Notes: generated by a model from the sequence alone, not told the origin. Shown: positions 1,226 through 29,667, counted from the stretch's first letter. The stretch: 32,000 nucleotides of DNA from Methylorubrum extorquens (GCA_900234795.1 LT962688.1:2610001-2642000); one strand, 5' to 3'. Made by a program: numbers and translations.

Positions 1226-2608
1226 TCAGGTGCGCGCGGCGAGGCGCAGGCCTTGGGCAGCAAGGTCGAGGCCGAGCAGGGCCAGGATCGCGAGGCCGGT
1301 CAACGGGAACAGGGCGCCGAGGCCGAGCATCAGGCCGGTGACGGTGGCGACGACGCGCCGGTCCCGCGGCCAGGGCGGCGTGCCGAGGCGTCCGGCCGGG
1401 CGCCGCTTCCACCACATCACCGCAGCGGTGACCGAGAGCAGGATCGTGCCGAGGCAGAAGGCGAGCATGGCAAGCTGGTTCGCCCGCCCCCAGAACTCAC
1501 CCTTGTGGAGGCCGATGCCGTACTGGATCGCCCGCGCCACGGGACCGAGATCGGCGAAGCGCACGTCGATGATCGGCTGGCCGCTGTAGCGGTCCAGGGA
1601 GACCATGCGCTGACCCGTGACGTCGCGCGGATAGGCGGAGGCGGCGTAGACGCCGGTCTCGCCCAGCGGCAGCGCCAGTTCGAAGCCCCCGGGCAGAGCC
1701 ATGTCGCGAAGGGTCGCGACTGCGCGGTCGATGCCGAGGGACGGCGCTCCGGAGGGGGCCGATCGCGGCATCAAGGCGTCTTCGAGTGCCCAGCCGGCGC
1801 TCTCCAAGCGCGCGCCCATCGGCACGGTGGAAACGGCCTTGCCGGCCCAGAGCTGAGTCGGTTGGCCGAGCCCGGCCCGGTTCGACCACGCCCGCAATTC
1901 CTGCCCCCACCAGACCGACCAGGGCAGACCGGTGAGCGCGAGAAACAGCAGGCCCGCCCCAGCGAACAGGCCGGTGGCGGCATGAAGATCGCGCCACCAG
2001 ACCCGGCGTCGCGGCGTCTCGCGCAGGCTCACGGCGCGTCCCCGGCGCTGCCCCTTCCCTTGCGGCCACCACAGATAGGCGCCGGTCACGACGAGGATGA
2101 TCGCGAACCCGGCCACGATCTCGATCAGGGCGTTCGCCGCCGTCCCGAACAGGGTGAGGCTGTGCAGGCCGCGCACGATCCCGAAGAACTCGCGATCCGC
2201 GGCGACGCGATCGAGCACGTCACCGGTATAGGGGTCGAGGTAGAGGAGGATCTTGCCCCCACCCTCGGCGAGGGTGACGAGGGCCGAGGCCGTGGGGCCG
2301 GCGGGCTCGGTGTAGGAGAGCGGGTTGCCCTCCGGCACCGCCTGCATGGCGTTGAAGATCAGGCGGTCGGGCCCGAGCGGGGTTCGGCCCGAGGATGCGA
2401 CCACCGTGCGGTGGGCGAACACGGTCGCGTTGATCTCGGCCTTGAACAGGTAGAGCGCGCCGGTGGCCGAGAGCAGGATCAGGAAGGGCAGGCAGAGCAG
2501 GCCGGCATAGAAATGCCAGCGCCATACGGCACGATAGACCGCATCGCGCGAGACGCGCAAAGACGCCGCGGCGGTGAAACCGGCGGTGCCCGACAGGGTG
2601 GAAGGCAT
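1226..2608 (-). CDS. PepSY-associated TM-helix protein (PiuB-like iron/metal-regulated membrane protein)
   Basis: 460-aa ORF starting at ATG 2608. The N-terminus AVYRAVWRWHFYAGLLCLPFLILLSATGALYLF and the several spaced TM segments are typical of the PepSY_TM family. It lies directly upstream of a TonB receptor, the usual pairing. Confidence 0.85.
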   Translation of the reverse strand: MPSTLSGTAGFTAAASLRVSRDAVYRAVWRWHFYAGLLCLPFLILLSATGALYLFKAEINATVFAHRTVVASSGRTPLGPDRLIFNAMQAVPEGNPLSYTEPAGPTASALVTLAEGGGKILLYLDPYTGDVLDRVAADREFFGIVRGLHSLTLFGTAANALIEIVAGFAIILVVTGAYLWWPQGKGQRRGRAVSLRETPRRRVWWRDLHAATGLFAGAGLLFLALTGLPWSVWWGQELRAWSNRAGLGQPTQLWAGKAVSTVPMGARLESAGWALEDALMPRSAPSGAPSLGIDRAVATLRDMALPGGFELALPLGETGVYAASAYPRDVTGQRMVSLDRYSGQPIIDVRFADLGPVARAIQYGIGLHKGEFWGRANQLAMLAFCLGTILLSVTAAVMWWKRRPAGRLGTPPWPRDRRVVATVTGLMLGLGALFPLTGLAILALLGLDLAAQGLRLAART

Positions 2609-2647
2609 GGGTTCGAAATCCGCGTCTGAGGGATCGGAGCGATCGTC

Positions 2648-3022
2648 TCAGGCGGCGGGCGGACCTCGGGGACTGGTGCCCTGATCGGGCGGTGCGCGGG
2701 CGCGGATCGTCGCCGCGGCGCGCCATGGCACGGGGGCGGCGCGCGGCGGCCAGATGGCGATGGCGGACGCGACCTGTGCCGGCGGGAAGAAATGGGCCGC
2801 CTGGACCTGCGTGCAGCAGGCGTGGTGGCCGCAGGGCTGCTCGTCGTCGGCCGGCGTGCCGGAGGCGGTAAGATGCTCCGCGCAGAGAATGCCGCCGTCG
2901 AGGCGCGGCAGGGCGGGCGCGAGAGCCGCGAGGAAAGCCTGGAAGACAAGCGCGTAGAGCGCGATCACCCCAATGATCGCGCGGCCGTGCACGGATCGGT
3001 GCGGGCGCTCGCGCATGGCCAT
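2648..3022 (-). CDS. DUF2946-like small membrane protein with a His/Cys cluster
   Basis: 124-aa ORF with an N-terminal TM segment (AIIGVIALYALVFQAFLAALAP) followed by CAEH...PCGHHACC. It is the first gene of a same-strand cluster with the PepSY and TonB receptor genes. The family assignment is from memory of the motif and its context. Confidence 0.55.
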   Translation of the reverse strand: MAMRERPHRSVHGRAIIGVIALYALVFQAFLAALAPALPRLDGGILCAEHLTASGTPADDEQPCGHHACCTQVQAAHFFPPAQVASAIAIWPPRAAPVPWRAAATIRARAPPDQGTSPRGPPAA

Positions 3023-3075
3023 GCTTCTAGAGCATCACCCCGAAAGGTGGCTACCGGCTTTCGGAAGAAGATGAT

Positions 3076-3130
3076 GCAAAACAAGAGCTCAGAGCATCGT
3101 GCTGGATCCGATATCCGGCACGATGCTCTG
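3076..3130 (-). terminator. Hairpin plus U-rich tail downstream of the 171-aa ORF (possible intrinsic terminator or operator)
   Basis: Perfect 13-bp inverted repeat CAGAGCATCGTGC (3090-3102) / GCACGATGCTCTG (3118-3130) with a 15-nt loop. On the minus strand it is followed by AGCUCUUGUUUUG. A second hairpin, CCGAAAG-N11-CTTTCGG, lies at 3040-3064. Confidence 0.4.
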
Positions 3131-3195
3131 GGCGGTGCTTGCGCGCCCGGTCAACGTGGACGCGCGCGGGTGACACGCGTCCTGCGGCGGCGGAA

Positions 3196-3711
3196 TCAGG
3201 CCGGCATGCCGGCCGGCTCGAACAGGAAGTCATCGACGGAAGGGATCGTCACCGCGAGGCTCGCGCCGTAGCTCGCCTTCGACAGGCGCCAAGGCCGCTC
3301 GGCGCGGGCGCGGATCGCCTCGGAGGGACGCAGGCGGCGCAGCGCGCCGTCCTCGTCCATCTCCTCGATCGTCAGGAAGCCGTAGACCTGCAGGCGCGAG
3401 GCGATGAGCTTGGTCTCGCGGTCACCCGCCGGAACCCGCAGGCTGCCCGTGGCATAGACCGCATCCATCAGGTTGCGCTGGTCGCTCCTCGAGCGGCTGC
3501 GGGGAGGCTCGCCCGCTCCGAATGCCGCGTTGATGGCGCCCTGCCGCGCGGCCGCAGGCCGACGGAAGGGGATGACGTTGTCCGTTCCCGGAACGCTACG
3601 CATACACAGGTACCTTCGTATCGCGGAAAGCTCCCCGACCGGCGCGCTCTCACGGCGCCGTCCGGTCGATGCGAAGCTTTCGACGATCCCGATTAATGCC
3701 TGCTTAGCCAT
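3196..3711 (-). CDS. Hypothetical protein (start uncertain; alternative ATGs at 3603 and 3468)
   Basis: 171-aa ORF. The C-terminal two thirds have typical high-GC3 codons, while the first ~36 codons have atypically low GC3 (GCT AAG CAG GCA TTA ...). ATG 3603 is preceded by AAGG. I recognise no family. Confidence 0.5.
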   Translation of the reverse strand: MAKQALIGIVESFASTGRRRESAPVGELSAIRRYLCMRSVPGTDNVIPFRRPAAARQGAINAAFGAGEPPRSRSRSDQRNLMDAVYATGSLRVPAGDRETKLIASRLQVYGFLTIEEMDEDGALRRLRPSEAIRARAERPWRLSKASYGASLAVTIPSVDDFLFEPAGMPA

Positions 3712-3774
3712 GCCCGGCCGAGGAGCGCGGAAGGCGTCCCGAAACGGGCCGCCTCCCCTCCCGGCCCTCGCGTC

Positions 3775-4434
3775 TCAGTTCAGAGCGACGGCGAACTCGC
3801 CTTCGGTCTTGGCGCGGATCTCGTCCTCGGTGACGCCGTCGGCGAGTTCGACCAGGGTCATGCCGCCATCGCCCTTCTTGTCGATGGTGAAGACGCCGAG
3901 ATCGGTGATGACCATGTCGACCACGGCGGTGCCGGTCAGCGGCAGGTCGCAGGCCTTCAGGAGCTTTGCGCTCTCCAAGCCGTCCTTGCCCTTGGCGACG
4001 TGCTCCATCACCACGACGACCTTCTTGACGCCGGCGACGAGATCCATCGCCCCGCCCATCCCCTTCACCATCTTGCCGGGGATCATCCAATTGGCGAGGT
4101 CGCCGTTCTGCGCCACCTGCATCGCGCCGAGGATTGACAGGTCGATATGCCCGCCGCGGATCATCCCGAACGAGTCGGCCGAGGAGAAGTAGCTCGTGGT
4201 CGGCAGCGCGGTGATGGTCTGCTTGCCGGCGTTGATGAGGTCGGGATCTTCCTCGCCCTCGTAGGGGAACGGCCCCATGCCGAGCATGCCGTTCTCGGAT
4301 TGCAACTGCACCGACATGCCCTCGGGGATGTAGTTCGACACCAGCGTCGGAATGCCGATGCCGAGATTCACGTAGAAGCCGTCTTCCAGCTCCCGGGCGG
4401 CGCGCTCCGCCATCTGCTCACGGGTCCAGGCCAT
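3775..4434 (-). CDS. scoB: 3-oxoacid CoA-transferase subunit B
   Basis: 219-aa ORF with the [12 protein letters not shown] active-site Glu motif and the conserved [17 protein letters not shown] and [12 protein letters not shown] segments. It sits downstream of subunit A. Confidence 0.95.
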
Positions 4435-4542
4435 GGTCTTGACGTTCCCTCGTTTGGCGCATCCTCGGAGCGACGATGCGCCGTCCGCCTCTAGGGGCGG
4501 CGCCGCGCCGTCGCGCTCGTGGCCTCTCGGCCGATGGTCGAA

Positions 4543-5280
4543 TCAGATCTGGCCGCCGCCGGCCGCCGCCGCTTCCGGCTCCTTGCGCTTGCGCACGGTA
4601 CGCTGCTCGATGCGCTTCTCGCGCACCGGCACGTGGAGGATGCGGCCGATGAAGATGCCCGGGGTGTGGATGTGGTCGGGGTCGATCTCACCCGGCTCGA
4701 CGAGGTGTTCGACCTGCGCGACCGTCACCTCCGCGGCGGTGGCCATCATCGGATTGAAGTTGCGCGCCGTCTTCCGGTAGACGAGGTTGCCCTCGGTATC
4801 GCCCTTCCAGGCGTGGACGATGGCCAGATCCGCGAACAACCCGCGCTCCATCACGTAGCTCTCGCCGTCGAACTCGCGCACTTCCTTGCCCTCGGCGACC
4901 TTGGTGCCGACGCCAGTCTTGGTGAAGAAGGCCGGGATGCCCGCCCCGCCTGCGCGGATGCGCTCGGCCAGCGTGCCCTGCGGGTTGAACTCGATCTCGA
5001 GTTCGCCGCCGAGATACTGGCGGGCGAATTCCTTGTTCTCGCCGACATAGGACGAGATCATCTTCTTCACCTGACGGGTGTCGAGCAGCTTGCCCAGGCC
5101 GACGCCGTCGATGCCGGCATTGTTGGAGATGACGGTGAGGTCCTTCACGCCCGAGGCCTGGATCGCGTCGATCAGCTCGTCCGGGATGCCGCATAGGCCG
5201 AAGCCGCCGGCCATGATCGTCATGCCGTCGCGCAGAAGGCCGGCGAGCGCCGCCTTCGGATCTGGATAGACCTTCTTCAT
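4543..5280 (-). CDS. scoA: 3-oxoacid CoA-transferase subunit A
   Basis: I take the internal start MKKVYPDPKAALAGLLRDGMTIMAGGFGLCGIPDELI at ATG 5280, preceded by AAGGAAGGGGA. The 304-aa track ORF has a spurious N-terminal extension. The conserved segment ISNNAG...SYVGEN is present. Confidence 0.95.
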   Translation of the reverse strand: MKKVYPDPKAALAGLLRDGMTIMAGGFGLCGIPDELIDAIQASGVKDLTVISNNAGIDGVGLGKLLDTRQVKKMISSYVGENKEFARQYLGGELEIEFNPQGTLAERIRAGGAGIPAFFTKTGVGTKVAEGKEVREFDGESYVMERGLFADLAIVHAWKGDTEGNLVYRKTARNFNPMMATAAEVTVAQVEHLVEPGEIDPDHIHTPGIFIGRILHVPVREKRIEQRTVRKRKEPEAAAAGGGQI

Positions 5281-5345
5281 CGACAGCGTCCCCTTCCTTA
5301 GTCTTCCGCCAGGGCGGGCCATGATTCGTTGGCCACGATACAATG

Positions 5346-5369
5346 TCCGAGATTCGGTCCGAGATTCGG
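5346..5369. repeat. Perfect tandem duplication of the 12-bp unit TCCGAGATTCGG
   Basis: TCCGAGATTCGG occurs at 5346-5357 and again at 5358-5369. Each unit contains the dyad CCGA-N3-TCGG. It lies 66-89 nt upstream of the scoA start in the scoA/asmA divergent intergenic region. Confidence 0.9.
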
Positions 5370-5667
5370 CGCCGGCCGCGCTCCCGATCGATGGCGATCG
5401 GGTGTGCAACGCGAAGCGGGCCCCGTCAAACCGGCGACGCATTTGCGCGCAATGCAAAAAGCCCCGCGCCGTAACCGCTTGCCCGGTGGGCGAGGCTGCG
5501 GCTGATCCTCATCGAAGCCCGGCCCGCCCCATCCACTGCATTGCGGGCCGGTCTGACCCCGTTCGCGGGACAGGGGAACGGGAAACGGCTAAGGAGTCGG
5601 ATCGCACGGCTCGCCACGCCGACGCGGTTCGGCCGAACCGATCCGCGTCGCCCGCCCACGGAGTGCA

Positions 5668-7566
5668 ATGTCGCTGCGCCGCACCCTTTCCGCCCTCGCA
5701 CTCGGACTCCTCGCTGCAGGGTTGGTGGCTGCCTGCCTGCCGTGGTCGATTGAGGCGCCCGGCACCGCCCGCTTCGTCAGCCGGGGCTTGCAGCAGGGCT
5801 GGGGCGTGGCGCTGGCAGCCCGGGGACGCACGGAGGTCGTGCTGCTCCCCCTTCCCCGGATCGTGTTCGAGGATATCCGCCTGACCGAGGGTGATGCCGC
5901 CGGGCCGGTCCTTGCCGCGGGCGGGAACCTGTCGCTTCAGCTCGGTCTTGCCGCGCTGCTCACCGGCCGGGTCGAGGTCGATTCCCTGACGCTCGACGGG
6001 TCGGAGCTGGTGCTGCCGCAGGAAGCGGGGGATCCCCGCTGGTCCGCGGCGGCCGAGCGCCTGACCCACAGCATCGCCGGCGCGGACGGTGACCGGCCCC
6101 GGCGGATCATCCTCGCCCGCTGCGCGCTCAAGGGCCGCGACCCGCGGGACGGAACGCTGCAGACGGCCCGCGACGTCGATCTCACGATCTCCTGGCCGGC
6201 CTGGAGCGAGAGCCTCGCGGTGAACGGGGGATTTCGCTGGAGCGACGGCAGCGCCCGGATCACGCTGACGGATCTGCGGCCCTACGCGCTCTTCTCCGGG
6301 GGCGAGAGCCCGTTCACCGCCGCCCTGACATGGCCGACGGGCTCCCTGAGCGCCCAAGGCAATGGCAGCCTGCGCGACGGCCTCAAGGCCTCGGGCACCG
6401 GCAGCCTCCAGACCCGATCCCTGCACAAGACGCTCGCCTTGACCGGCGGCGGTCTCGCCCTGTCGCCCTTCGTCGAGGATTTCGCCGTGGAGGGCAGCTT
6501 CGAGGCGGCCTCCGGTCAGATCCAGTTTCCGAGCGTCACCGTGCGCAGCGACGGGAACGTGCTCGAGGGGGCAGGCTCGGCCACTTTCGGCCCGAAGCGC
6601 AACGCGGTGCAGGCCACGCTCGCGGCCGAAAACCTCAACCTCTCGCCGCTGCTCGCCGGCCTCCTGCGTCTGACGGGCTTCGATCGTGCCGCCGACGACG
6701 CGGCCAGGCACAGCCGGTCCCTCGACCTGCGTCCCTTCACCGGGGGCGACCTCGATCTGCGGATCTCCGCCGGCAATGCCCGGATCGGGCCGGTGCAGCT
6801 GACGGACCTCGCCTCCAGCGTTCTCGTGCGCGAGGACGGCATCGAGGCGTCGCTCGGCCGTGCCAATGTGCGCGGCGGTATGGTCAAGGGCCGGGTTTCC
6901 CTCGCCGCCGACGGGGGCGAGGCGGCCCCCACCCGCGTAAAGGCGCAGGGCAGTTTCGACGGGCTCGATCTCGGAGCTCTGCTCGACGATCTCGGCCAGT
7001 CTCGCTGGGTGCTCGGGGCGACGCGGGGCAGTCTCGCGCTGGAGGGAGCCGGCCACGATGTCGATGCCCTGGCCCGTTCCGTATCGGGCCGGGTCGCGCT
7101 GGAGAGCGCGGACGGTGCCCTGTCCGGGCTCGACCTCGCCGACGTGGTTCATCGCGGCGGCGCGGTGGCGCCGGGGGCGTTGGCCCGGCGCAACGGCCGG
7201 ACGCCCTTCGAGCATGCCGCCGTGACCCTGCTGTTCGCCGACGGCGTCGGCGAGATCGTCGAGGGAAGGCTCGCCTCCCGCACCCTCGGCGCGTCCCTGA
7301 ACGGGCGCGTCGCCCTGGCCGACCGCCGCTTCCAGGCGCGGGCCGAGATCCTGCCGCGGGCAACTGCCTCCGCCGACGGGGCGTCGCCCCCCGCCACGCT
7401 GTTCGAGATCGCCGGTCCCTGGGATGCCGTGAGCGTTCGGGCCAGCGCCGGGCCGCGTCCCGCCGGGGACGAGGCACGCCAGCGTGCCGCCCCCGATTCC
7501 TTCCAGCGGCCCGGCGCCGATCTGCCGCTCGGCATCCGCGCCTACGTGCCGGCGCCGGGGCCCTGA
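5668..7566 (+). CDS. AsmA-family outer-membrane biogenesis protein
   Basis: 632-aa ORF with GGAG 5 nt upstream of the ATG and an N-terminal anchor LSALALGLLAAGLVAACL. The protein is long, Gly/Ala/Leu/Asp-rich and predicted to be beta-rich, with an AsmA-like N-terminus (VVLLPLPRIVFEDIRL) and C-terminus (SLALEGAG...GRVALESADGALSGLDL). Confidence 0.8.
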   Translation: MSLRRTLSALALGLLAAGLVAACLPWSIEAPGTARFVSRGLQQGWGVALAARGRTEVVLLPLPRIVFEDIRLTEGDAAGPVLAAGGNLSLQLGLAALLTGRVEVDSLTLDGSELVLPQEAGDPRWSAAAERLTHSIAGADGDRPRRIILARCALKGRDPRDGTLQTARDVDLTISWPAWSESLAVNGGFRWSDGSARITLTDLRPYALFSGGESPFTAALTWPTGSLSAQGNGSLRDGLKASGTGSLQTRSLHKTLALTGGGLALSPFVEDFAVEGSFEAASGQIQFPSVTVRSDGNVLEGAGSATFGPKRNAVQATLAAENLNLSPLLAGLLRLTGFDRAADDAARHSRSLDLRPFTGGDLDLRISAGNARIGPVQLTDLASSVLVREDGIEASLGRANVRGGMVKGRVSLAADGGEAAPTRVKAQGSFDGLDLGALLDDLGQSRWVLGATRGSLALEGAGHDVDALARSVSGRVALESADGALSGLDLADVVHRGGAVAPGALARRNGRTPFEHAAVTLLFADGVGEIVEGRLASRTLGASLNGRVALADRRFQARAEILPRATASADGASPPATLFEIAGPWDAVSVRASAGPRPAGDEARQRAAPDSFQRPGADLPLGIRAYVPAPGP

Positions 7567-7596
7567 CATCCGGACCGCGTAGGTCCGGATGTCAGG
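7562..7596. terminator. 15-bp perfect hairpin between convergent asmA-family and carboxypeptidase genes
   Basis: CCTGACATCCGGACC (7562-7576), loop GCGTA, GGTCCGGATGTCAGG (7582-7596). It overlaps the asmA-family stop codon (7564-7566). Neither side has a clear U-run. Confidence 0.5.
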
Positions 7597-7605
7597 AAGA
7601 CGATC

Positions 7606-8865
7606 TCAGGAGTTGCCGCTGGCCGTGCCGGCCGTGGACGTGCTGCCGCCGGAGCCGTTGCCGCCCTTGGCCTTCTCGAAGGCGCGGCGGACGAGGTCTG
7701 TGCCGACTTCCATCGCCGCGTCGAGGGCCCGCTGCGACAGGGTGCCGGCCTCCACCGTCTCCCCGGCATAAACCGGCTGCTCCAGGGCGAGGCTGTCGCC
7801 GCGGGTGACGCGCAGGCGGCCGACCTCGCGGCCCTGCGCCACGGGCGCGACGAGCGGCCCCTGGTAGACCACCTTGGCGGTCACCCGATCCGAGGTGCCG
7901 CGCGGCAGCAGCAGGCGCACCGGCTTGTTGGCCACCACCGGCACGGAGCCCTTCTCGCCGCCGAAGACCGAAACTTCGGCAACCGTCTCGTTCGCGGCGA
8001 AGACCTGCCGCGGCTCGAAGGCGCGGAACCCCCATTCCATCATCTTGCGGGCTTCCGCCGCGCGGTCACGCGCGGTCTTGAGGCCGGAAACCACCATGAT
8101 CAGCCGCTGGCCGTTCTGCACCGCCGAGCCGGTGAGCGCGTAGCCCGATTCTTCGAGGTAGCCGGTCTTCAACCCGTCGGCGCCGATATCGAGGGTCAGG
8201 AGCGGGTTGCGGTTCTGCTGCTTGATCTTGTTCCAAGTGAATTCACGCTCGGAATAGATCTTGTAGAATTCGGGGTAGGTGTCGATGAGGTATTGGGCGA
8301 TCCGCGCCATGTCGCGGGCGGTCACCTTCTGGTCGGGGGCCGAGTAGCCGGTCGCGTTGCGGAAGGTCGAGCGCGTCAGCCCGATCTCCTTGGCGCGCTG
8401 GTTCATCATCCCGGCGAAGGCGTCCTCGGTGCCCGCCATGTTCTCGGCGATGGTGATTGCCGCGTCGTTGCCCGACTGCACGATCAGCCCGCGCAGCAGG
8501 TCGGAGAGCTTGATGCGGCTGTTGACCTGCGCGAACATCGACGAGCCGCCGCCCCCGGCCCCGCCGCGGCGCCACGCGTCCTCGGTCACCGTGAATTCGG
8601 TGTCCATGGAGAGGCGCCCCTCCTTGATGGCGCGGAACACGATTTCCGCCGTCATCAGCTTGGCCATGCTCGCCGGGGAGAACGGTTCGTCGGCCGCCTT
8701 CTCGAACAGCACCGAGCCGGAATCGGCATCGATCAGGATCGCGTGCGCGGCCGCCGTCTGGAACGTCTGGGCGCGCGAGGGCGCCGGATGAAGGAACGCA
8801 CTGACGATTGCGGCCAGCATTCCCGCGAGCGCCCAGCGCGCCGCTCGGAACCGTCTCTCACACAT
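7606..8865 (-). CDS. D-alanyl-D-alanine carboxypeptidase (PBP5/6-type serine peptidase)
   Basis: SxxK (SMAKLMT), SxN (QSGNDAA) and KTG (LKTGY) motifs are present. I take the start at ATG 8865 (MCERRFRAARWALAGMLAAIVSAFLHPAPSRAQ signal peptide), preceded by GGGAGAGG. The track ORF running to 9036 is over-extended. Confidence 0.9.
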   Translation of the reverse strand: MCERRFRAARWALAGMLAAIVSAFLHPAPSRAQTFQTAAAHAILIDADSGSVLFEKAADEPFSPASMAKLMTAEIVFRAIKEGRLSMDTEFTVTEDAWRRGGAGGGGSSMFAQVNSRIKLSDLLRGLIVQSGNDAAITIAENMAGTEDAFAGMMNQRAKEIGLTRSTFRNATGYSAPDQKVTARDMARIAQYLIDTYPEFYKIYSEREFTWNKIKQQNRNPLLTLDIGADGLKTGYLEESGYALTGSAVQNGQRLIMVVSGLKTARDRAAEARKMMEWGFRAFEPRQVFAANETVAEVSVFGGEKGSVPVVANKPVRLLLPRGTSDRVTAKVVYQGPLVAPVAQGREVGRLRVTRGDSLALEQPVYAGETVEAGTLSQRALDAAMEVGTDLVRRAFEKAKGGNGSGGSTSTAGTASGNS

Positions 8866-16473: not shown

Positions 16474-16836
16474 TCAGGTCATGCAGCGGCCGGGCACCAT
16501 GCGGCGCGCCTCCGGCCCGACGAGCGAGCTGAGCGGAGCCTCGCAGCCCTCCCGCGTCAGGCGACGGGGCTTGGCCGGCAACTCTTCCTGAGCGGAGCGG
16601 GTCGGCATCGACTCCGAGCGCGTGGACGGACGGGGCGCCGTCGCCACATGGATCGGGGTCAGAGCGGTGGAATAGGGGCGCATGCCCGGAAGCGGCGTGG
16701 CCGGCGCCTCGTAGGCGACGCGCGGAGCCGTTGGGGCTCCCATCGCATCGGCTTCCTGCCGGACCACCGGCAGAAGCAGCAGGGTCATGATCGCAGCGGG
16801 AACACTCACACCGAGGGCGAAGCCGGTCCGAAGCAT
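16474..16836 (-). CDS. Hypothetical secreted or membrane-anchored protein (120 aa), putative GSR regulon member
   Basis: ATG 16836 is preceded by GGGGAT. The N-terminal hydrophobic segment is GFALGVSVPAAIMTLLLLPVV, the middle is Pro/Thr/Ala-rich, and two C-terminal Cys are present. GC3 is acceptable. A perfect EcfG-type promoter lies 40-65 nt upstream. Confidence 0.55.
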   Translation of the reverse strand: MLRTGFALGVSVPAAIMTLLLLPVVRQEADAMGAPTAPRVAYEAPATPLPGMRPYSTALTPIHVATAPRPSTRSESMPTRSAQEELPAKPRRLTREGCEAPLSSLVGPEARRMVPGRCMT

Positions 16837-16876
16837 CTTTGCGATCCCCGATGGGAGCTTGACAGGTTGTCATCAC

Positions 16877-16902
16877 AACGCTGCTTTCAGATCTTCGGTT
16901 CC
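16877..16902 (-). promoter_or_regulatory. sigma-EcfG-type promoter (GGAAC-N17-CGTT)
   Basis: On the minus strand, GGAAC is at 16902-16898, a 17-nt spacer follows, and CGTT is at 16880-16877. The -10 element is about 40 nt upstream of ATG 16836. Confidence 0.7.
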
Positions 16903-17056
16903 TTCACTGTCCCGCTTCGGATCACATCAGTATTTTCATCTTCATCGGCGCGTCCGCTCCCGCAATGCAGCGGATGCGTGGAGGGAGAGAGCGCCGGAGG
17001 GTCGTGATAAAAAAGCACCTGTGGATGAAAAATCTGCGGGGTCCGGAGCCGAATTC

Positions 17057-17081
17057 GGAACCTGGCGGATGGTCATTAGTT
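17057..17081 (+). promoter_or_regulatory. Near-consensus sigma-EcfG-type promoter (GGAAC-N16-AGTT)
   Basis: GGAAC is at 17057-17061, a 16-nt spacer follows, and AGTT is at 17078-17081, so the GTT core is kept and the C is replaced by A. It points into a non-coding stretch that ends at a strong terminator. Confidence 0.4.
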
Positions 17082-17084
17082 AGA

Positions 17085-17176
17085 GAATCACCCGGCCACT
17101 CTGGTCCTCCCCGCATTCCCCTTGTGCATCGGCCGGAACCTTTTCACGGGTCGGACAATGGTCCGGCCCGTTTTTT
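17085..17176 (+). ncRNA. Candidate ~90-nt sRNA (GsrN-like candidate), GSR-associated
   Basis: It is bounded by the promoter-like motif at 17057-17081 and the intrinsic terminator at 17147-17176. No SD-led ORF is present, since the only long frame runs through the terminator with poor codon usage. It carries C-rich motifs CCTCCCC (17106-17112) and TTCCCCTT (17116-17123). A possible stem CCGGCC (17092-17097) / GGCCGG (17131-17136) encloses them. The 5' end is estimated and not observed. Confidence 0.4.
17147..17176 (+). terminator. Rho-independent terminator (plus strand)
   Basis: CGGGTCGGAC, loop AATG, GTCCGGCCCG: a 10-bp stem with one G-U pair, followed by TTTTTT (17171-17176). Confidence 0.7.
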
Positions 17177-17240
17177 CCTGCGCATTTGCATCGAGCCGGC
17201 TGCCCGTGGGTGATGCTCGCCGCGGCGCTCATCGCGCACG

Positions 17241-17270
17241 AAAAAAGGCGCCAGCCTCTCGGCCGGCGCC
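17241..17270 (-). terminator. Rho-independent terminator of phyR
   Basis: The minus-strand RNA reads GGCGCCGGCC, loop GAGA, GGCUGGCGCC (10-bp stem with one G-U pair), followed by UUUUUU (plus-strand A-run at 17241-17246). It lies 27 nt downstream of the phyR stop. Confidence 0.75.
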
Positions 17271-17296
17271 CTCGGTCACTGTTCTGAAGTTTTAGC

Positions 17297-18100
17297 TCAG
17301 GCGTTATGCGCCTCGCGACGGCGCGCGCTCTGCTGGAAGAACAAAGCCTGGCTGATGACGGCCGACACGTTGGCGGGCTGGAACGGCTTGGCGATGAGGA
17401 AGGCCGGCTCGGGGCGCTCGCCCGTGAGGAAGCGCTCGGGATAGGCCGTGATGAAGATCACCGGCACCTCGAAGGTCTTCAGCAGGTCGTTGACTGCATC
17501 CAGGCCCGACGAGCCGTCGGCGAGCTGAATGTCGGCGAGGATCAGGCCGGGGCGCTTGCTCTCGGAGGCGATCTTGACCGCCTCGGTGCGGGTGCGCGCC
17601 ACGCCGATGACATTGTGGCCGAGGCCTTCGACCAGGGCTTCCAGATCCATGGCGATCAGCGGCTCGTCCTCGATGATGAGGATTTCCGTGGCCATGTCGG
17701 CGGCGAGCTCGCGGCCCGCCTCGTCCACGAGATCGCGCACCTTGGACACGTCTACATCGAGGATCACGCCCGCATCCTCCTCCGAAAAGCCTTCGAGGCA
17801 CGAGAGCAGGAACGCCTGCCGGGGAAGCGGCGTGATCTGGCCGAGCCGGACTTCGGCCGGCAAATCGTGCTGCACCTGATCGCTGTGGCCGTTCACGGAC
17901 AGCGAATTCCAGATCCGCGTGAAGACGCGGAAGAGGTCGGCCTTGACGTTCGTGCTGCGGCCGAGGGTCTCGGGCTCGTTGACCAGCGTCTCGAGGGTGG
18001 CCGCGACATAGGCATCGCCCGCCACCTGACTGCCCGTGAGCGCGCGCGCATAACGGCGCAGATACGGAAGGTGCTGCACGACCAGTTGTGCTGTGGACAT
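17297..18100 (-). CDS. phyR: PhyR anti-anti-sigma factor/response regulator (ECF-sigma-like N-domain plus receiver domain)
   Basis: I take the start at ATG 18100 (MSTAQLVVQHLPYLRRYARALTGSQVAGDAYV), preceded by AGGGGAA. The N-terminus is sigma-like, and the C-terminal receiver contains ILIIEDEPLIAMDLE...LILADIQLADGSSG...ITAYPE. The track ORF running to 18238 is over-extended. Confidence 0.95.
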   Translation of the reverse strand: MSTAQLVVQHLPYLRRYARALTGSQVAGDAYVAATLETLVNEPETLGRSTNVKADLFRVFTRIWNSLSVNGHSDQVQHDLPAEVRLGQITPLPRQAFLLSCLEGFSEEDAGVILDVDVSKVRDLVDEAGRELAADMATEILIIEDEPLIAMDLEALVEGLGHNVIGVARTRTEAVKIASESKRPGLILADIQLADGSSGLDAVNDLLKTFEVPVIFITAYPERFLTGERPEPAFLIAKPFQPANVSAVISQALFFQQSARRREAHNA

Positions 18101-18145
18101 GAGTTCCCCTGAGCCTCTTCGCTCTTCGTTTGTCGCTGCGCCCCT

Positions 18146-18170
18146 AACGCGGGGGCTCAACGTCCGTTCC
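18146..18170 (-). promoter_or_regulatory. sigma-EcfG-type promoter of phyR (GGAAC-N16-CGTT)
   Basis: On the minus strand, GGAAC is at 18170-18166, a 16-nt spacer follows, and CGTT is at 18149-18146. It lies about 46 nt upstream of the phyR ATG. Confidence 0.8.
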
Positions 18171-18180
18171 TGGCCCATGC

Positions 18181-18205
18181 GGAACCCTAACCGCATGTCG
18201 GCGTT
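18181..18205 (+). promoter_or_regulatory. sigma-EcfG-type promoter of nepR (GGAAC-N16-CGTT)
   Basis: GGAAC is at 18181-18185, a 16-nt spacer follows, and CGTT is at 18202-18205. It is back-to-back with the phyR promoter, 10 nt apart. Confidence 0.8.
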
Positions 18206-18279
18206 GCTGCTGCAGCCATGACTCATGTCAAGCTGCAAGACAATCGCGGCAGATGTGGCGCCAAGGGGATCTTGAACGC

Positions 18280-18501
18280 ATGAATGAGAACGAGCCGGCC
18301 GGCGCGTTCCCTTCCGGGGACCGGCCCACTCGAGGGCGTGGCGACAATGGTTTGAATGACCAGACGCAGAGGCGCATCGGAAGCCATCTGCGCACCCTCT
18401 ACGATTCCGTCGTGCAGCAGCCGATTCCGGATCGCTTTCGCGATCTCATCGCACGGCTTGAGGACGAACCCGCCAATCCGGACGATCCGGCGAGCGCCTG
18501 A
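18280..18501 (+). CDS. nepR: NepR anti-sigma factor
   Basis: 73-aa protein with the NepR signature IGSHLRTLYDSVVQQPIPDRFRDLIARL. ATG 18280 is preceded by AAGGGGA. The in-frame ATG at 18253 lacks an SD. Confidence 0.85.
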   Translation: MNENEPAGAFPSGDRPTRGRGDNGLNDQTQRRIGSHLRTLYDSVVQQPIPDRFRDLIARLEDEPANPDDPASA

Positions 18502-18529
18502 TCGGTCATCTTTCTTTTCGTCAGTGGTG

Positions 18530-18563
18530 CGAGCCGCTCCCGCTGCCGGGTGCGGCTCGTTTG
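18530..18563 (+). terminator. Hairpin shared by convergent nepR and the DUF1328 gene
   Basis: The stem is CGAGCCGC-T-CCCG, loop CTGC, CGGG-T-GCGGCTCG, followed by TTTG on the plus strand. It lies 29 nt after the nepR stop and 21 nt after the DUF1328 stop. Confidence 0.6.
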
Positions 18564-18579
18564 TCGTGGTCGCGAACGG

Positions 18580-18756
18580 CTACAAGGTCGGCGAACGACC
18601 GCGCATCAGGCCGATCACGGCCGAGATCGCGAACAGGACGATCGCAACGAAGAAGACGAGCTTTGCGGCCTCCATGGCCGTACCGGCGATGCCGCCGAAG
18701 CCCAGCAGGGCCGCGACGAGGGCAACCACCAGGAACGTAACAGCCCAACCGAGCAT
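18580..18756 (-). CDS. DUF1328 (YtjA/UPF0391-like) small membrane protein, 58 aa
   Basis: This gene is not in the ORF track because it is under 60 aa. My translation is [58 protein letters not shown]. The SD is GGAAGGAAG, and a perfect EcfG promoter lies upstream. Confidence 0.85.
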
Positions 18757-18813
18757 GTCGAACTTCCTTCCAAAGAACTGGCGCGGCCCGTGCCGCGGCC
18801 TCTTGGAAGCAAT

Positions 18814-18839
18814 AACGCCAAGTTTTCGCCGCAGGTTCC
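18814..18839 (-). promoter_or_regulatory. sigma-EcfG-type promoter of the DUF1328 gene (GGAAC-N17-CGTT)
   Basis: On the minus strand, GGAAC is at 18839-18835, a 17-nt spacer follows, and CGTT is at 18817-18814. Confidence 0.75.
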
Positions 18840-18901
18840 TTTTGCGTTTCCAAGGCTGTGAACACTTTTTTACCGGCTGCCTGCGACCGTGCTACGCCCC
18901 T

Positions 18902-18927
18902 GGAACCGACTGGCAAATTCGGCAGTT
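18902..18927 (+). promoter_or_regulatory. Near-consensus sigma-EcfG-type promoter (GGAAC-N17-AGTT)
   Basis: GGAAC is at 18902-18906, a 17-nt spacer follows, and AGTT is at 18924-18927. It is divergent from the DUF1328 promoter and about 68 nt upstream of the 48-aa ORF. Confidence 0.4.
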
Positions 18928-18994
18928 CGTCACCATCTCACCCCTAGACGATCAGACGACAATCAGACTTGATGATGTGAAGGAGGCCCCCAGC

Positions 18995-19141
18995 GTGCCC
19001 GCACAGAAAAAGACCCTCGTCCCCGGTATCGCTCAAGCGAAAGCCGTTCTGGAGGCCGCTGCACGGCTCGTTTCGGCGCTCTCACCGCAGCCGGTTCTCC
19101 AGCCCATTCCCGTTCGCTTGAAGTCTGTTCACCGCCGCTGA
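18995..19141 (+). CDS. Hypothetical 48-aa protein (GTG start)
   Basis: A strong SD, AAGGAGG (18980-18986), lies 8 nt before GTG 18995. The product is (M)PAQKKTLVPGIAQAKAVLEAAARLVSALSPQPVLQPIPVRLKSVHRR. GC3 is about 66%, below the genome norm. A terminator-like hairpin plus T6 follows. Confidence 0.4.
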   Translation: MPAQKKTLVPGIAQAKAVLEAAARLVSALSPQPVLQPIPVRLKSVHRR

Positions 19142-19184
19142 ACGGCAGGTTTTCATCGACCTGAATGCTGTCGATCCAGGTGCC

Positions 19185-19207
19185 GTCCCACCGGGCGGCG
19201 CTTTTTT
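19185..19207 (+). terminator. Weak intrinsic terminator after the 48-aa ORF
   Basis: CCGTCC, loop CACC, GGGCGG: a 6-bp stem including one G-U pair, then CGC and TTTTTT (19202-19207). Confidence 0.45.
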
Positions 19208-19455
19208 CATGCCAATAGGCTGTCCACAGATGCGGTGCCGGCCGATGGGCGGCGTTGTTCGCTATACGGATCCAAAGAGGGTGTCGCCGCAAGGCTTTGC
19301 AGTCTGGCGGATTTTCAGCTGGCGGATGCAGCCGTTCCTGCGTGGTTTGCCGACATTGTCCTCCCCGCAAACGGCCGACTAGCTGGATCTCGGGCGAAAC
19401 GCCCGGCCGGTCTCGTCTTCGTGGCGAACGCGCCAGATCGACGGGGGCGGCAACG

Positions 19456-23018: not shown

Positions 23019-23207
23019 TTAAGCCTCGCCGGTGCGACCGGTCGATTGACCACCCTTGCGACCGGCCGAAGAGGCCAGTTCACGATCTTGCGAGAACGAC
23101 CGCTTGTCCGCCGGGACGGAACGACCGCCCTTACTGGCGATCTCGCGCTGCCGTTCGATATTCATGGAAGCGAAACCTCGCTTCGAGGTGGAATTACCAG
23201 ATGCCAT
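23019..23207 (-). CDS. KGG-repeat general stress protein (YciG-like)
   Basis: 62-aa product MASGNSTSKRGFASMNIERQREIASKGGRSVPADKRSFSQDRELASSAGRKGGQS with two KGG-type repeats. The SD GAGGAGG lies upstream. Confidence 0.85.
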   Translation of the reverse strand: MASGNSTSKRGFASMNIERQREIASKGGRSVPADKRSFSQDRELASSAGRKGGQSTGRTGEA

Positions 23208-23243: not shown

Positions 23244-23268
23244 AACCATCATCCCACTCGATTGTTCC
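23244..23268 (-). promoter_or_regulatory. Near-consensus sigma-EcfG-type promoter of the KGG gene (GGAAC-N16-GGTT)
   Basis: On the minus strand, GGAAC is at 23268-23264, a 16-nt spacer follows, and GGTT is at 23247-23244. The -10 element is about 37 nt upstream of the ATG. Confidence 0.5.
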
Positions 23269-23295: not shown

Positions 23296-23320
23296 GAAAC
23301 CCCTGTTTCGTCCAGACGTT
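23296..23320 (+). promoter_or_regulatory. Near-consensus sigma-EcfG-type promoter (GAAAC-N16-CGTT)
   Basis: GAAAC is at 23296-23300, a 16-nt spacer follows, and CGTT is at 23317-23320. It is divergent from the KGG promoter and points toward 23398-23628. Confidence 0.35.
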
Positions 23321-23397: not shown

Positions 23398-23628
23398 ATG
23401 ACGAACCGATATATGGTAAAGCCTTCACTTGCAGCCAAGTCTGCTGCGGCTTCGGGAAGCAAGGGCGACCCTCAGCCGAACAGAACGCCGATGCCGGCCA
23501 TGCCGGCGCCAGAGGACAGTCCGACACCGACGACGCATGAGGAGCCCGTGGATTCGCCGCAGCCCAATGCGAGCGTGAAGCGGGATGCGCCAGGGCCCGG
23601 TGAGATCGGTCTTTCCACGAAACGCTGA
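23398..23628 (+). CDS. Possible 76-aa hydrophilic Pro/Ser/Asp/Glu-rich protein (uncertain)
   Basis: The ORF lies downstream of the GAAAC-N16-CGTT motif. Its SD is weak and GC3 is about 67%. An overlapping antisense frame (23472-23618) shares the same third positions, so codon statistics cannot discriminate between them. Confidence 0.25.
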   Translation: MTNRYMVKPSLAAKSAAASGSKGDPQPNRTPMPAMPAPEDSPTPTTHEEPVDSPQPNASVKRDAPGPGEIGLSTKR

Positions 23629-29262: not shown

Positions 29263-29409
29263 CATTTCCGGGCGGCGGGGAAGCTTCGCAATAATTTTGC
29301 GGACAGCCCGCTGAACCCGTGTCGCGCGGGCACGTTACCTGCTAGCGGGAGTCCATAGCGCGGAGAGCGCCTCGGTCTTCCGGCCAGGGCACCCGCGGGA
29401 CTTCAAGCT

Positions 29410-29667
29410 ATGTCGCATCCCGACTCTCCCTCAGCCCTCCTCGATCATCGCGCCATCGTTCCCGGTCACCGGGCGATGCAAGCGGCCTATCTCTGGATCA
29501 TCGCGACGTTGACCGCGGCGGCGGGTGTCACCGGGCTCGTCTATCTCGAAGCCGACCGTAACGGCCGCGAGGCGGGCCGGATGATCGTCGCCGCCCAGAA
29601 TGGCAGCAGCTACGCCGCGATCCTCGTCCACGGCATGGCCCAGCGTCACAGCCGTCCGACCCCTTAA
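29410..29667 (+). CDS. Hypothetical small membrane protein (85 aa; uncertain)
   Basis: GC3 is acceptable and there is one TM segment (AAYLWIIATLTAAAGVTGLVYL). The SD is weak and I recognise no family. Confidence 0.3.
   Translation: MSHPDSPSALLDHRAIVPGHRAMQAAYLWIIATLTAAAGVTGLVYLEADRNGREAGRMIVAAQNGSSYAAILVHGMAQRHSRPTP

Follow-up and report, generated by a model that had tools for sequence, protein, structure and literature searches.

The 32,000-nucleotide (nt) stretch of Methylorubrum extorquens DNA analysed here (GCA_900234795.1 LT962688.1:2610001-2642000; hereafter the window) contains, around the genes phyR and nepR, a compact 2.7-kb island that is very probably the core general stress response (GSR) locus of an M. 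extorquens-group bacterium, composed of six separately promoted, mostly terminator-bounded units. The units are arranged as three divergent pairs, in line with the back-to-back layout described in an initial annotation of this DNA, and each of them lies behind a motif of the type used by the sigma factor sigma-EcfG. Conservation of their half-sites among relatives, and transcription starts downstream of four of them in strain DM4, indicate that all six work as promoters. Besides phyR and nepR, the units comprise genes for a DUF1328 membrane protein, for two small proteins of 48 and 120 amino acids (aa), and for a small RNA (sRNA). The regulatory switch, the promoter motif, the autoregulation of phyR and nepR, and the idea of a GSR sRNA beside the locus are already known; new for this lineage are the six-unit architecture (at least seven units elsewhere), a deeply conserved RNA family outside Rfam, and two uncharacterised small proteins.

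Sigma-EcfG-type promoters of the island

An exact pattern search of the 32-kb window returned four GGAAC-N16/17-CGTT sites and two GGAAC-N16/17-AGTT sites (Table 1), and thereby reproduced exactly the six motif coordinates of the initial annotation. For the CGTT pattern 0.41 sites were expected and none of 100 dinucleotide shuffles reached four, while 0.10 sites were expected for the AGTT pattern. Both patterns together amounted to six sites, spanning 2.05 kb, vs. 0.5 expected per 32 kb. When compared with the definition of sigma-EcfG (ECF15) promoters, (G)GAAC and (C/G)GTT separated by 16–17 nt, four sites were exact and two carried AGTT as the -10 element, and the set was assigned to this promoter class by sequence. 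The consensus for M. extorquens AM1 is GAAC-N16,17-C/GGTT (PMC4814048), and in Sphingomonas melonis a gene under EcfG control is preceded by AGTT as the -10 element (PMC6599016). The initial statement that the 32 kb hold no other match was correct for (C/A)GTT, but not under the published consensus, by which a seventh site, GGAAC-N16-GGTT, is recognised outside the island (Table 1).

All six sites are intergenic, and the early remark that no motif lies inside a long coding sequence is therefore accurate. Each of them is also near a transcription unit and has its half-sites kept in orthologous loci, as expected of sigma-EcfG promoters. The -10 element ends 41 nt upstream of the 120-aa open reading frame (ORF) start codon, 46 nt upstream of that of phyR, 58 nt upstream of that of the DUF1328 gene and 68 nt upstream of that of the 48-aa ORF. 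For nepR the distance is 75 or 48 nt, depending on the start codon chosen, and in the sRNA unit the -10 element ends approximately 9 nt ahead of the onset of the conserved RNA.

Conservation among relatives

For comparison, 80 phyR loci from other genomes were scanned for the motif, with those of Methylobacterium/Methylorubrum (L001-L012) covering approximately 8.8 kb each. The closest relatives are very similar to the window: the island DNA is 99.76% identical to CP021054.1 and, over 2882 nt without gaps, 98.4% identical to strain DM4 (FP103042.2). PhyR is 98–99% identical to Methylorubrum proteins (M. rhodesianum, M. subtropicum), and the 120-aa protein is identical to one from several M. 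extorquens-group genomes. The synteny comparison across Methylobacterium proposed in the initial annotation showed the motif at the same place and in the same orientation in every Methylobacterium/Methylorubrum species having the corresponding gene, with GGAAC and the final GTT retained at all six positions in 12–13 species. For five of the promoters, the -10 element was CGTT in 11–13 species. The spacer cores had pairwise identities of 31–45%, apart from that of the DUF1328 promoter (66%), which includes a conserved extended -10 region, AAC(C)TTGRCGTT, accounting for the higher value. The half-sites of the promoters thus stand out across the alignments as a clean phylogenetic footprint. Only one strict-pattern site was found outside the island in L001-L012, upstream of a gene for a KGG-repeat protein. 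In one of these loci (L001, Methylorubrum subtropicum), only four of the six motifs were present, and the DUF1328 gene and the 48-aa gene were missing beside nepR; the composition of the island thus varies within the genus.

A cluster produced by chance or by base composition, in which only the known phyR and nepR promoters were real, could be suspected from the small number of bases that the motif fixes (nine) and from the intergenic DNA of the island, which is less G+C-rich (59%) than the whole window (68.5%). Such an origin can hardly be credited. Markov-1 simulation of 2.9 kb with the composition of the island gave a mean of 0.07 motifs and a maximum of three in 1500 runs, against the six observed, and simulation of the intergenic composition alone gave a mean of 0.035 matches and a maximum of two in 3000 runs. 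Conservation already contradicts a chance cluster, as all six sites are syntenic in the 12–13 species though their spacers have diverged, and DM4 starts were found downstream of two of the four sites additional to those of phyR and nepR. Simulation and synteny thus both bear out the original judgement that the clustering is non-random.

The phyR-nepR core

PhyR combines a sigma-like N-terminal domain with a C-terminal receiver domain (PF22029, E = 9e-24; PF22233, 3.5e-20; PF00072, 9e-12). NepR, encoded beside phyR and divergent from it, contains the NepR anti-sigma motif (PF18557, E = 2.3e-16; 59.6 bits vs. a cut-off of 25.7). Their promoters stand back-to-back with the -35 elements 10 bp apart, and that of phyR (GGAACGGA…GCGTT) was retained in 13 of 13 species. 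The start of nepR is ambiguous: the DM4 annotation has an 82-aa form beginning at an upstream ATG (18253), and the 73-aa form was found in seven of eight annotations. Both start codons are located downstream of the mapped DM4 starts. Between nepR and the DUF1328 gene, which converge, lies a common hairpin that is probably a bidirectional terminator, although its U tracts are poor.

According to the AM1 study, the phyR promoter has been mapped, and EcfG-type promoters place both phyR and nepR under autoregulation (PMC4814048). Together with the AM1 consensus, these statements mean that the central promoter pair was already known. The autoregulated phyR and nepR promoters expected in the initial annotation are consistent with them. 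As far as the accessible text describes it, the AM1 locus resembles the present one in the divergent orientation of phyR and nepR, in the consensus, and in the location of ecfG outside the locus; in addition, the published AM1 nepR cloning primer matches the window. It differs in that this portion of the text describes the phyR and nepR promoters only, and not the four flanking units, the divergent-pair layout or the family-wide conservation.

Table 1. Features of the phyR-nepR island and of the KGG unit, with positions counted from the first nucleotide of the window
Feature	Position	Strand	Details
120-aa protein ORF	16474-16836	-	METDI3674 in DM4
Leader block ACAWCCUGUCAAGCUC	16855-16870	-	5' end of 120-aa gene leader; 16 nt, 7 nt past -10
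120-aa gene sigma-EcfG-type promoter	16877-16902	-	GGAAC-N17-CGTT
sRNA sigma-EcfG-type promoter	17057-17081	+	GGAAC-N16-AGTT
Small RNA (candidate)	17090-17176	+	~87 nt, convergent to phyR; conserved 5' stem-loop, linker, terminator
phyR intrinsic terminator	17241-17273	-	13-bp hairpin, then U6
phyR	17297-18100	-	267 aa, anti-anti-sigma response regulator; Pfam PF22029, PF22233, PF00072
phyR sigma-EcfG-type promoter	18146-18170	-	GGAAC-N16-CGTT
nepR sigma-EcfG-type promoter	18181-18205	+	GGAAC-N16-CGTT; kept in 13/13 species
nepR	18280-18501	+	Anti-sigma factor, 73 aa; PF18557
nepR/DUF1328 shared hairpin	18529-18560		Between convergent units
DUF1328/UPF0391 (YtjA-like) membrane protein	18580-18756	-	58 aa; PF07043
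DUF1328 gene sigma-EcfG-type promoter	18814-18839	-	GGAAC-N17-CGTT
48-aa gene sigma-EcfG-type promoter	18902-18927	+	GGAAC-N17-AGTT
48-aa small protein	18995-19141	+	GTG start; Shine-Dalgarno AAGGAGG 8 nt upstream
48-aa gene intrinsic terminator	19178-19209	+	11-bp hairpin, then U6
KGG-repeat stress protein	23019-23207	-	62 aa; PF10685 E = 1.3e-16
Seventh EcfG-type promoter	23244-23268	-	GGAAC-N16-GGTT, 37 nt upstream of KGG gene

Transcription starts in strain DM4

Growth on dichloromethane releases intracellular HCl. Primary transcription starts determined by differential RNA sequencing (dRNA-seq) in strain DM4 grown on dichloromethane vs. methanol (PMC9320726, Table S1) were placed on the window via the DM4 locus (L088). 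In this dataset the phyR start had a signal of 71 with dichloromethane and 2 with methanol. Starts of the DUF1328 gene (METDI3671; signal 43), of nepR (signal 29) and, weakly, of the 120-aa gene (METDI3674; signal 6) were recorded with dichloromethane only. They correspond to window positions 18133 (phyR), 18217 and 18221 (nepR), 18799 (DUF1328 gene) and 16858 (120-aa gene), and in all four units the start falls between the motif and the start codon. Being located downstream of the motifs, these starts support the activity of four of the six promoters during growth on dichloromethane.

Several points weigh against the interpretation of the locus as a six-unit GSR island. The DM4 starts are 13 (phyR), 12 and 16 (nepR), 15 (DUF1328 gene) and 19 nt (120-aa gene) from the last T of the -10 element, which is farther than in Caulobacter gsrN (9 nt, as calculated from the sequence and the coordinates of the probe published for this gene), and also than the 6–10 nt predicted in the initial annotation. 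A leaderless recF start in the same DM4 table argues against a systematic shift of the starts. Furthermore, no start of the sRNA or the 48-aa gene is among the DM4 starts in the portion of Table S1 searched, which is weak evidence given the low depth of the "+" libraries (0.3–0.8 million aligned reads only) and the manual removal of 1597 starts. M. extorquens also has six EcfG paralogues, any of which could be the one acting here. Finally, the C-to-A change at 17078, which turns CGTT into AGTT, may lower the activity of the sRNA promoter, and with it sRNA expression, in this lineage.

It could accordingly be asked whether transcription of the two units with AGTT, i.e., the sRNA and the 48-aa gene, is weak or absent in this strain, leaving an operative island of four units. 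The missing DM4 starts would agree with this, as would the deviation of AGTT from the C/GGTT consensus published for AM1 (PMC4814048) and the recent origin of AGTT at the sRNA promoter: it was found only in the window and in CP021054.1, with CGTT being present in DM4 and five further strains among the eight of the M. extorquens group compared, as well as in 11 of 12 species. However, DM4 has CGTT at this promoter and still no listed start, so that the gap is probably due to sequencing depth or filtering. AGTT also precedes the EcfG-regulated gene of S. melonis (PMC6599016), and purifying selection is clear for both the sRNA and the 48-aa protein. We therefore consider silent or weak AGTT units unlikely and retain the island of six promoted units. 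At the promoter of the 48-aa gene the -10 element was CGTT in eight species, GGTT in three and AGTT in one, and AGTT was present in all eight M. extorquens-group strains checked. The two "variants" of the initial annotation are real sites, better described as lineage variants of CGTT/GGTT sites.

The small RNA

Judged by comparative sequence analysis, the sRNA candidate is a structured, conserved RNA. The prediction of its 5' end is based on where conservation sets in and on the spacing in Caulobacter gsrN; conservation starts approximately 9 nt past the -10 element and continues to the terminator. The elements follow in the order ACCCGGCC-ACUCUGGUCCUCCCCGCAUUCCCCUUGUGCAUC-GGCCGG-AACCUUUUCAC-(hairpin)-U6. 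The 5' stem (17092-17097 paired with 17131-17136) encloses a 33-nt C-rich loop (…GGUCCUCCCCGCAUUCCCCUU…), and the terminator hairpin (17146-17171) is followed by a run of six U; the z-score of the fold was -4.1. In Methylobacterium, Methylorubrum, Microvirga and Salinarimonas the loop hardly varies; 23 loci of these four genera have the 19-mer GGTCCTCCCCGCATTCCCC in common, although their promoters and terminators differ.

A covariance model built from 21 sequences gave 75–110 bits in the same four genera and 15–32 bits in Rhodoplanes, Enterovirga and many Xanthobacteraceae. The low-scoring matches were found at the same site, downstream of and convergent to phyR, and each had a sigma-EcfG-like motif ahead of it; the loop reads …UUUCCCCCUCCCCCCGUGCUU… in the matches from Xanthobacteraceae and Rhodoplanes. 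In an alignment of 41 sequences, 99% of the cells were paired and 11 of 13 pairs showed compensatory changes, values to be read with the caveat that this alignment was fitted to the covariance model. None of 500 shuffles and no slid register came close. Compensatory changes in the terminator were also detected independently with MAFFT/RNAalifold, and by eye the stem CCGGCC/GGCCGG was seen to be replaced by CUGGCC/GGCCAG in Salinarimonas. The loop itself, being invariant, is uninformative for pairing. Second copies of the sRNA are present in Microvirga and Salinarimonas loci, away from phyR. Rfam searches (whole window and nine distant loci at the gathering threshold, island at E <= 10) gave no relevant match to the sRNA, and no coordinates matching the sRNA or the 48-aa gene were found in the supplement of a 2026 sRNA-pipeline preprint. 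When scanned with duplexfold against 28 translation-initiation regions of the window, the sRNA loop was not separated from shuffled loops, with a marginal value for the 120-aa gene (0.025).

The convergent position directly downstream of phyR has been kept from Methylobacterium to the Xanthobacteraceae and is unusually stable, which might point to an action in cis on phyR by convergent transcription, by read-through antisense to its 3' end or by shared termination. This is quite improbable, because the sRNA has a strong terminator of its own and ends 65 nt before the phyR terminator, and because the strongest constraint is on the 33-nt unpaired loop rather than on any region overlapping phyR. 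Moreover, the paralogous copies in the Microvirga and Salinarimonas loci lie off phyR, and gsrN of Caulobacter works in trans from a distal site (PMC5869019). We therefore favour an action of the sRNA in trans.

GsrN of Caulobacter is transcribed by sigma-T, and its C-rich 5' loop pairs with G-rich sites, e.g., in the katG leader (Tien et al., 2018; PMC5869019). The mRNA of nepR-sigT was recovered together with it on purification, its homologs are usually located beside the GSR locus, and GsrN-like RNAs were predicted from promoter and position in Rhizobiaceae, Brucella, Rhodopseudomonas and Bradyrhizobium; the name Methylobacteriaceae has no occurrence in that article (PMC5869019). By the two features used there, an EcfG-type promoter and proximity to the GSR locus, the present sRNA is GsrN-like. 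It shares with GsrN a promoter of the GGAAC-N16-CGTT type near the phyR locus, a length of approximately 90–110 nt, and the succession of 5'-terminal stem, loop with an exposed C-rich tract, linker and terminator. In the predicted fold, this tract is exposed by a 5' stem-loop whose closing stem has compensatory changes. It differs in the tract itself, which reads CCUCCCC…UUCCCC within the 33-nt loop, as opposed to six tandem cytosines in GsrN. Sequence homology to Caulobacter GsrN was not detectable: neither nhmmer --max with the family profile nor blastn-short found any similarity to gsrN. Since promoter, position and architecture agree without sequence homology, the sRNA was classified as GsrN-like by context and not as a demonstrated homolog; by analogy, it probably works like GsrN.

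Small proteins

The 58-aa protein belongs to the DUF1328 family (PF07043, 52.9 bits vs. 27; NCBIfam NF010228 (PRK13682.1-3), 80.2 vs. 71) and is 96–100% identical across the genus Methylobacterium. In matching its family model and lying behind an EcfG-type motif it resembles the 62-aa KGG-repeat protein described below, the two representing the YtjA/UPF0391 and YciG types, respectively. In enterobacteria, members of the DUF1328 and KGG families count among the stationary-phase or stress genes. In contrast to the enterobacterial type, the genes would here be wired to an alphaproteobacterial sigma factor of the extracytoplasmic function (ECF) type and are attached to its regulatory locus.

The 48-aa and 120-aa ORFs are conserved coding genes, as their alignments indicate, and neither belongs to a Pfam family. 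The 120-aa protein, for which NCBIfam likewise gave no match, has a conserved hydrophobic N-terminus that may be a signal or anchor segment, a variable proline/alanine-rich linker and, in the ortholog alignment, the C-terminal motif KPRRxxREGCExxxSSLxGPEARRMxPGRC with two cysteines. It may be exported to the periplasm or anchored in the membrane. Its 74 homologs (E <= 0.001) are "hypothetical" or nameless, and all those with a name come from Methylobacterium or Methylorubrum, the two genera to which the protein is restricted. As the -10 element of its promoter, 11 of 12 species have CGTT and the remaining one has AGTT. The block at the 5' end of its leader was conserved in 11 of 12 sequences, with one variable A/T position, the exception being L003, in which it reads TCAATCGGTCAAGCTC; the promoter spacers of these sequences differ. 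The DM4 start of the gene falls inside this block.

An ORF of 48–61 aa was found at the site of the 48-aa gene in all Methylobacterium loci, with the tail LxPxPVRV(R/K)…RRR kept while the DNA diverges. The middle part is helical in Methylobacterium; the Microvirga counterparts have 67 aa, hydrophobic segments and the same tail. A profile search with this family retrieved Methylobacterium, Methylorubrum and Microvirga only, always under the name "hypothetical". Some sources name the Microvirga members YtjA/DUF1328. The family was nevertheless rejected as a diverged DUF1328 paralogue, with an hhalign probability of 0.2% against the DUF1328 protein of the window and no Pfam match. It was not assigned to PA1414_fam (NCBIfam NF041729) either, as the 48-aa protein scored 15.2 bits and the best ortholog 23.3 vs. 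a cut-off of 28.

PA1414/SicX of Pseudomonas aeruginosa (Cao et al., 2023; PMC10247376) is comparable in being short, in its strong induction by condition, as presumed for the 48-aa unit, and in a weak similarity to the C-terminus of the 48-aa protein; it differs in that the scores are under the cut-off, and in organism, regulator and, probably, mode of action. PA1414 was shown to exert its effect as the sRNA SicX, for which translation is not required (PMC10247376), and the 48-aa unit could by the same logic function mainly as an RNA or dual-function RNA and not through its peptide. The ORF was uncalled in all eight M. extorquens-group loci looked up, and four of 14 orthologs gave sub-threshold hits to PA1414_fam (E <= 0.1; best E = 3.4e-5, 23.3 bits vs. 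28). We regard such a function as very improbable, since the ORF and its motif PxPVRVR…RRR have been kept despite strong nucleotide divergence, the GTG start has a Shine-Dalgarno sequence of consensus type ahead of it, and the PA1414 match remains under the curated cut-off. The 48-aa unit is thus taken to act through its protein. The module of very small effectors proposed in the initial annotation is consistent with these findings, as the 48-aa and 120-aa ORFs are conserved coding genes and the sRNA is structured and conserved. Chaignaud 2017 and Lim 2019 contain nothing on the genes of the island.

Proposed function and significance

We infer that the four flanking units depend on PhyR and sigma-EcfG, and extend the same reasoning to the expression and mode of action of the sRNA and to the functions of the small proteins. 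In the mechanism proposed, stress-activated kinases would phosphorylate PhyR, and PhyR~P would capture NepR and so free sigma-EcfG, the gene for which is located outside this locus in the genus. RNA polymerase containing sigma-EcfG would then initiate at the six GGAAC-N16/17-(C/A)GTT promoters. The resulting rise of phyR and nepR would constitute feedback on the switch. The DUF1328 protein, the 48-aa protein with its basic tail, the exported or anchored 120-aa cysteine-containing protein and the sRNA of approximately 87 nt would be co-induced. The sRNA would most likely act in trans, as does GsrN of Caulobacter, with its unpaired C-rich loop pairing with G-rich or Shine-Dalgarno-like stretches of mRNAs, and would add a post-transcriptional layer to the stress response.

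To our knowledge, the GSR regulon consists mostly of small genes of unknown function, and a post-transcriptional layer is known only in Caulobacter. The island provides three candidates whose position and promoters link them to the master regulators: the sRNA, a small protein uncalled in annotations and a genus-specific exported or anchored protein. More speculatively, and with greater doubt than confidence on our part, the sRNA may represent the Hyphomicrobiales counterpart of GsrN, i.e., an ancient, sigma-EcfG-dependent RNA tethered to phyR, whose loop feeds back on the partner switch. Its targets may then include, e.g., the translation or stability of the ecfG3, nepR and phyR mRNAs. A PhyR-dependent post-transcriptional rise of sigma-EcfG3 after stress is described for M. 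extorquens, and a "small RNA" invoked for it, by Francez-Charlot et al. (2016; PMC4814048). If the sRNA is such a counterpart, it would supply this "small RNA", and the 48-aa and 120-aa proteins would be further lineage-specific effectors of the island. The sRNA is the most valuable part of the locus, as it makes directly testable how sigma-EcfG3 rises after stress without transcriptional change (PMC4814048). It also yields a seed alignment and a structure for a new RNA family across several Hyphomicrobiales families.

Extension of the island

The seventh unit, located 4.3 kb from the island, encodes the KGG-repeat protein, which matches PF10685 in two stretches (60.9 bits vs. 20.4). In six Methylobacterium species, its ortholog and promoter are directly beside the 120-aa gene, inside the island; the KGG gene adjoins the sRNA in Enterovirga-like genomes and is approximately 3 kb from phyR in Microvirga. 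The Microvirga loci (L013-L020, L025, L026, L061; locus coordinates ~2600-8200) contain 10–12 EcfG-type motifs in 8.8 kb, often as divergent pairs. A second, diverged copy of the sRNA (~6800-6930, minus strand) and a palindromic double motif (~5727-5753) were observed there, together with genes for a protein of approximately 175 aa that has a hydrophobic segment at its N-terminus, a putative PRC-barrel protein (by eye), a protein of approximately 90 aa and a KGG protein. Given the number of Microvirga motifs and the inclusion of the KGG gene in the island, the phyR locus appears to accumulate EcfG-promoted mini-genes recurrently. This accretion, with at least seven units in some Methylobacterium and 10–12 motifs in Microvirga, suggests a collecting point for GSR effectors.

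Two weaker sites were observed in the window outside the island. GAAAC-N16-CGTT at 23296-23320 (+) lies back-to-back with the KGG promoter across a gap of 27 bp, and 78 nt past it a proline-rich, probably disordered ORF of 76 aa begins (23398-23628, +); together with the KGG promoter, this site may form another divergent GSR pair. TGAAC-N16-CGTT at 29312-29336 (+) is located 74 nt upstream of an 85-aa hydrophobic ORF (29410-29667, +) that was assigned to no family.

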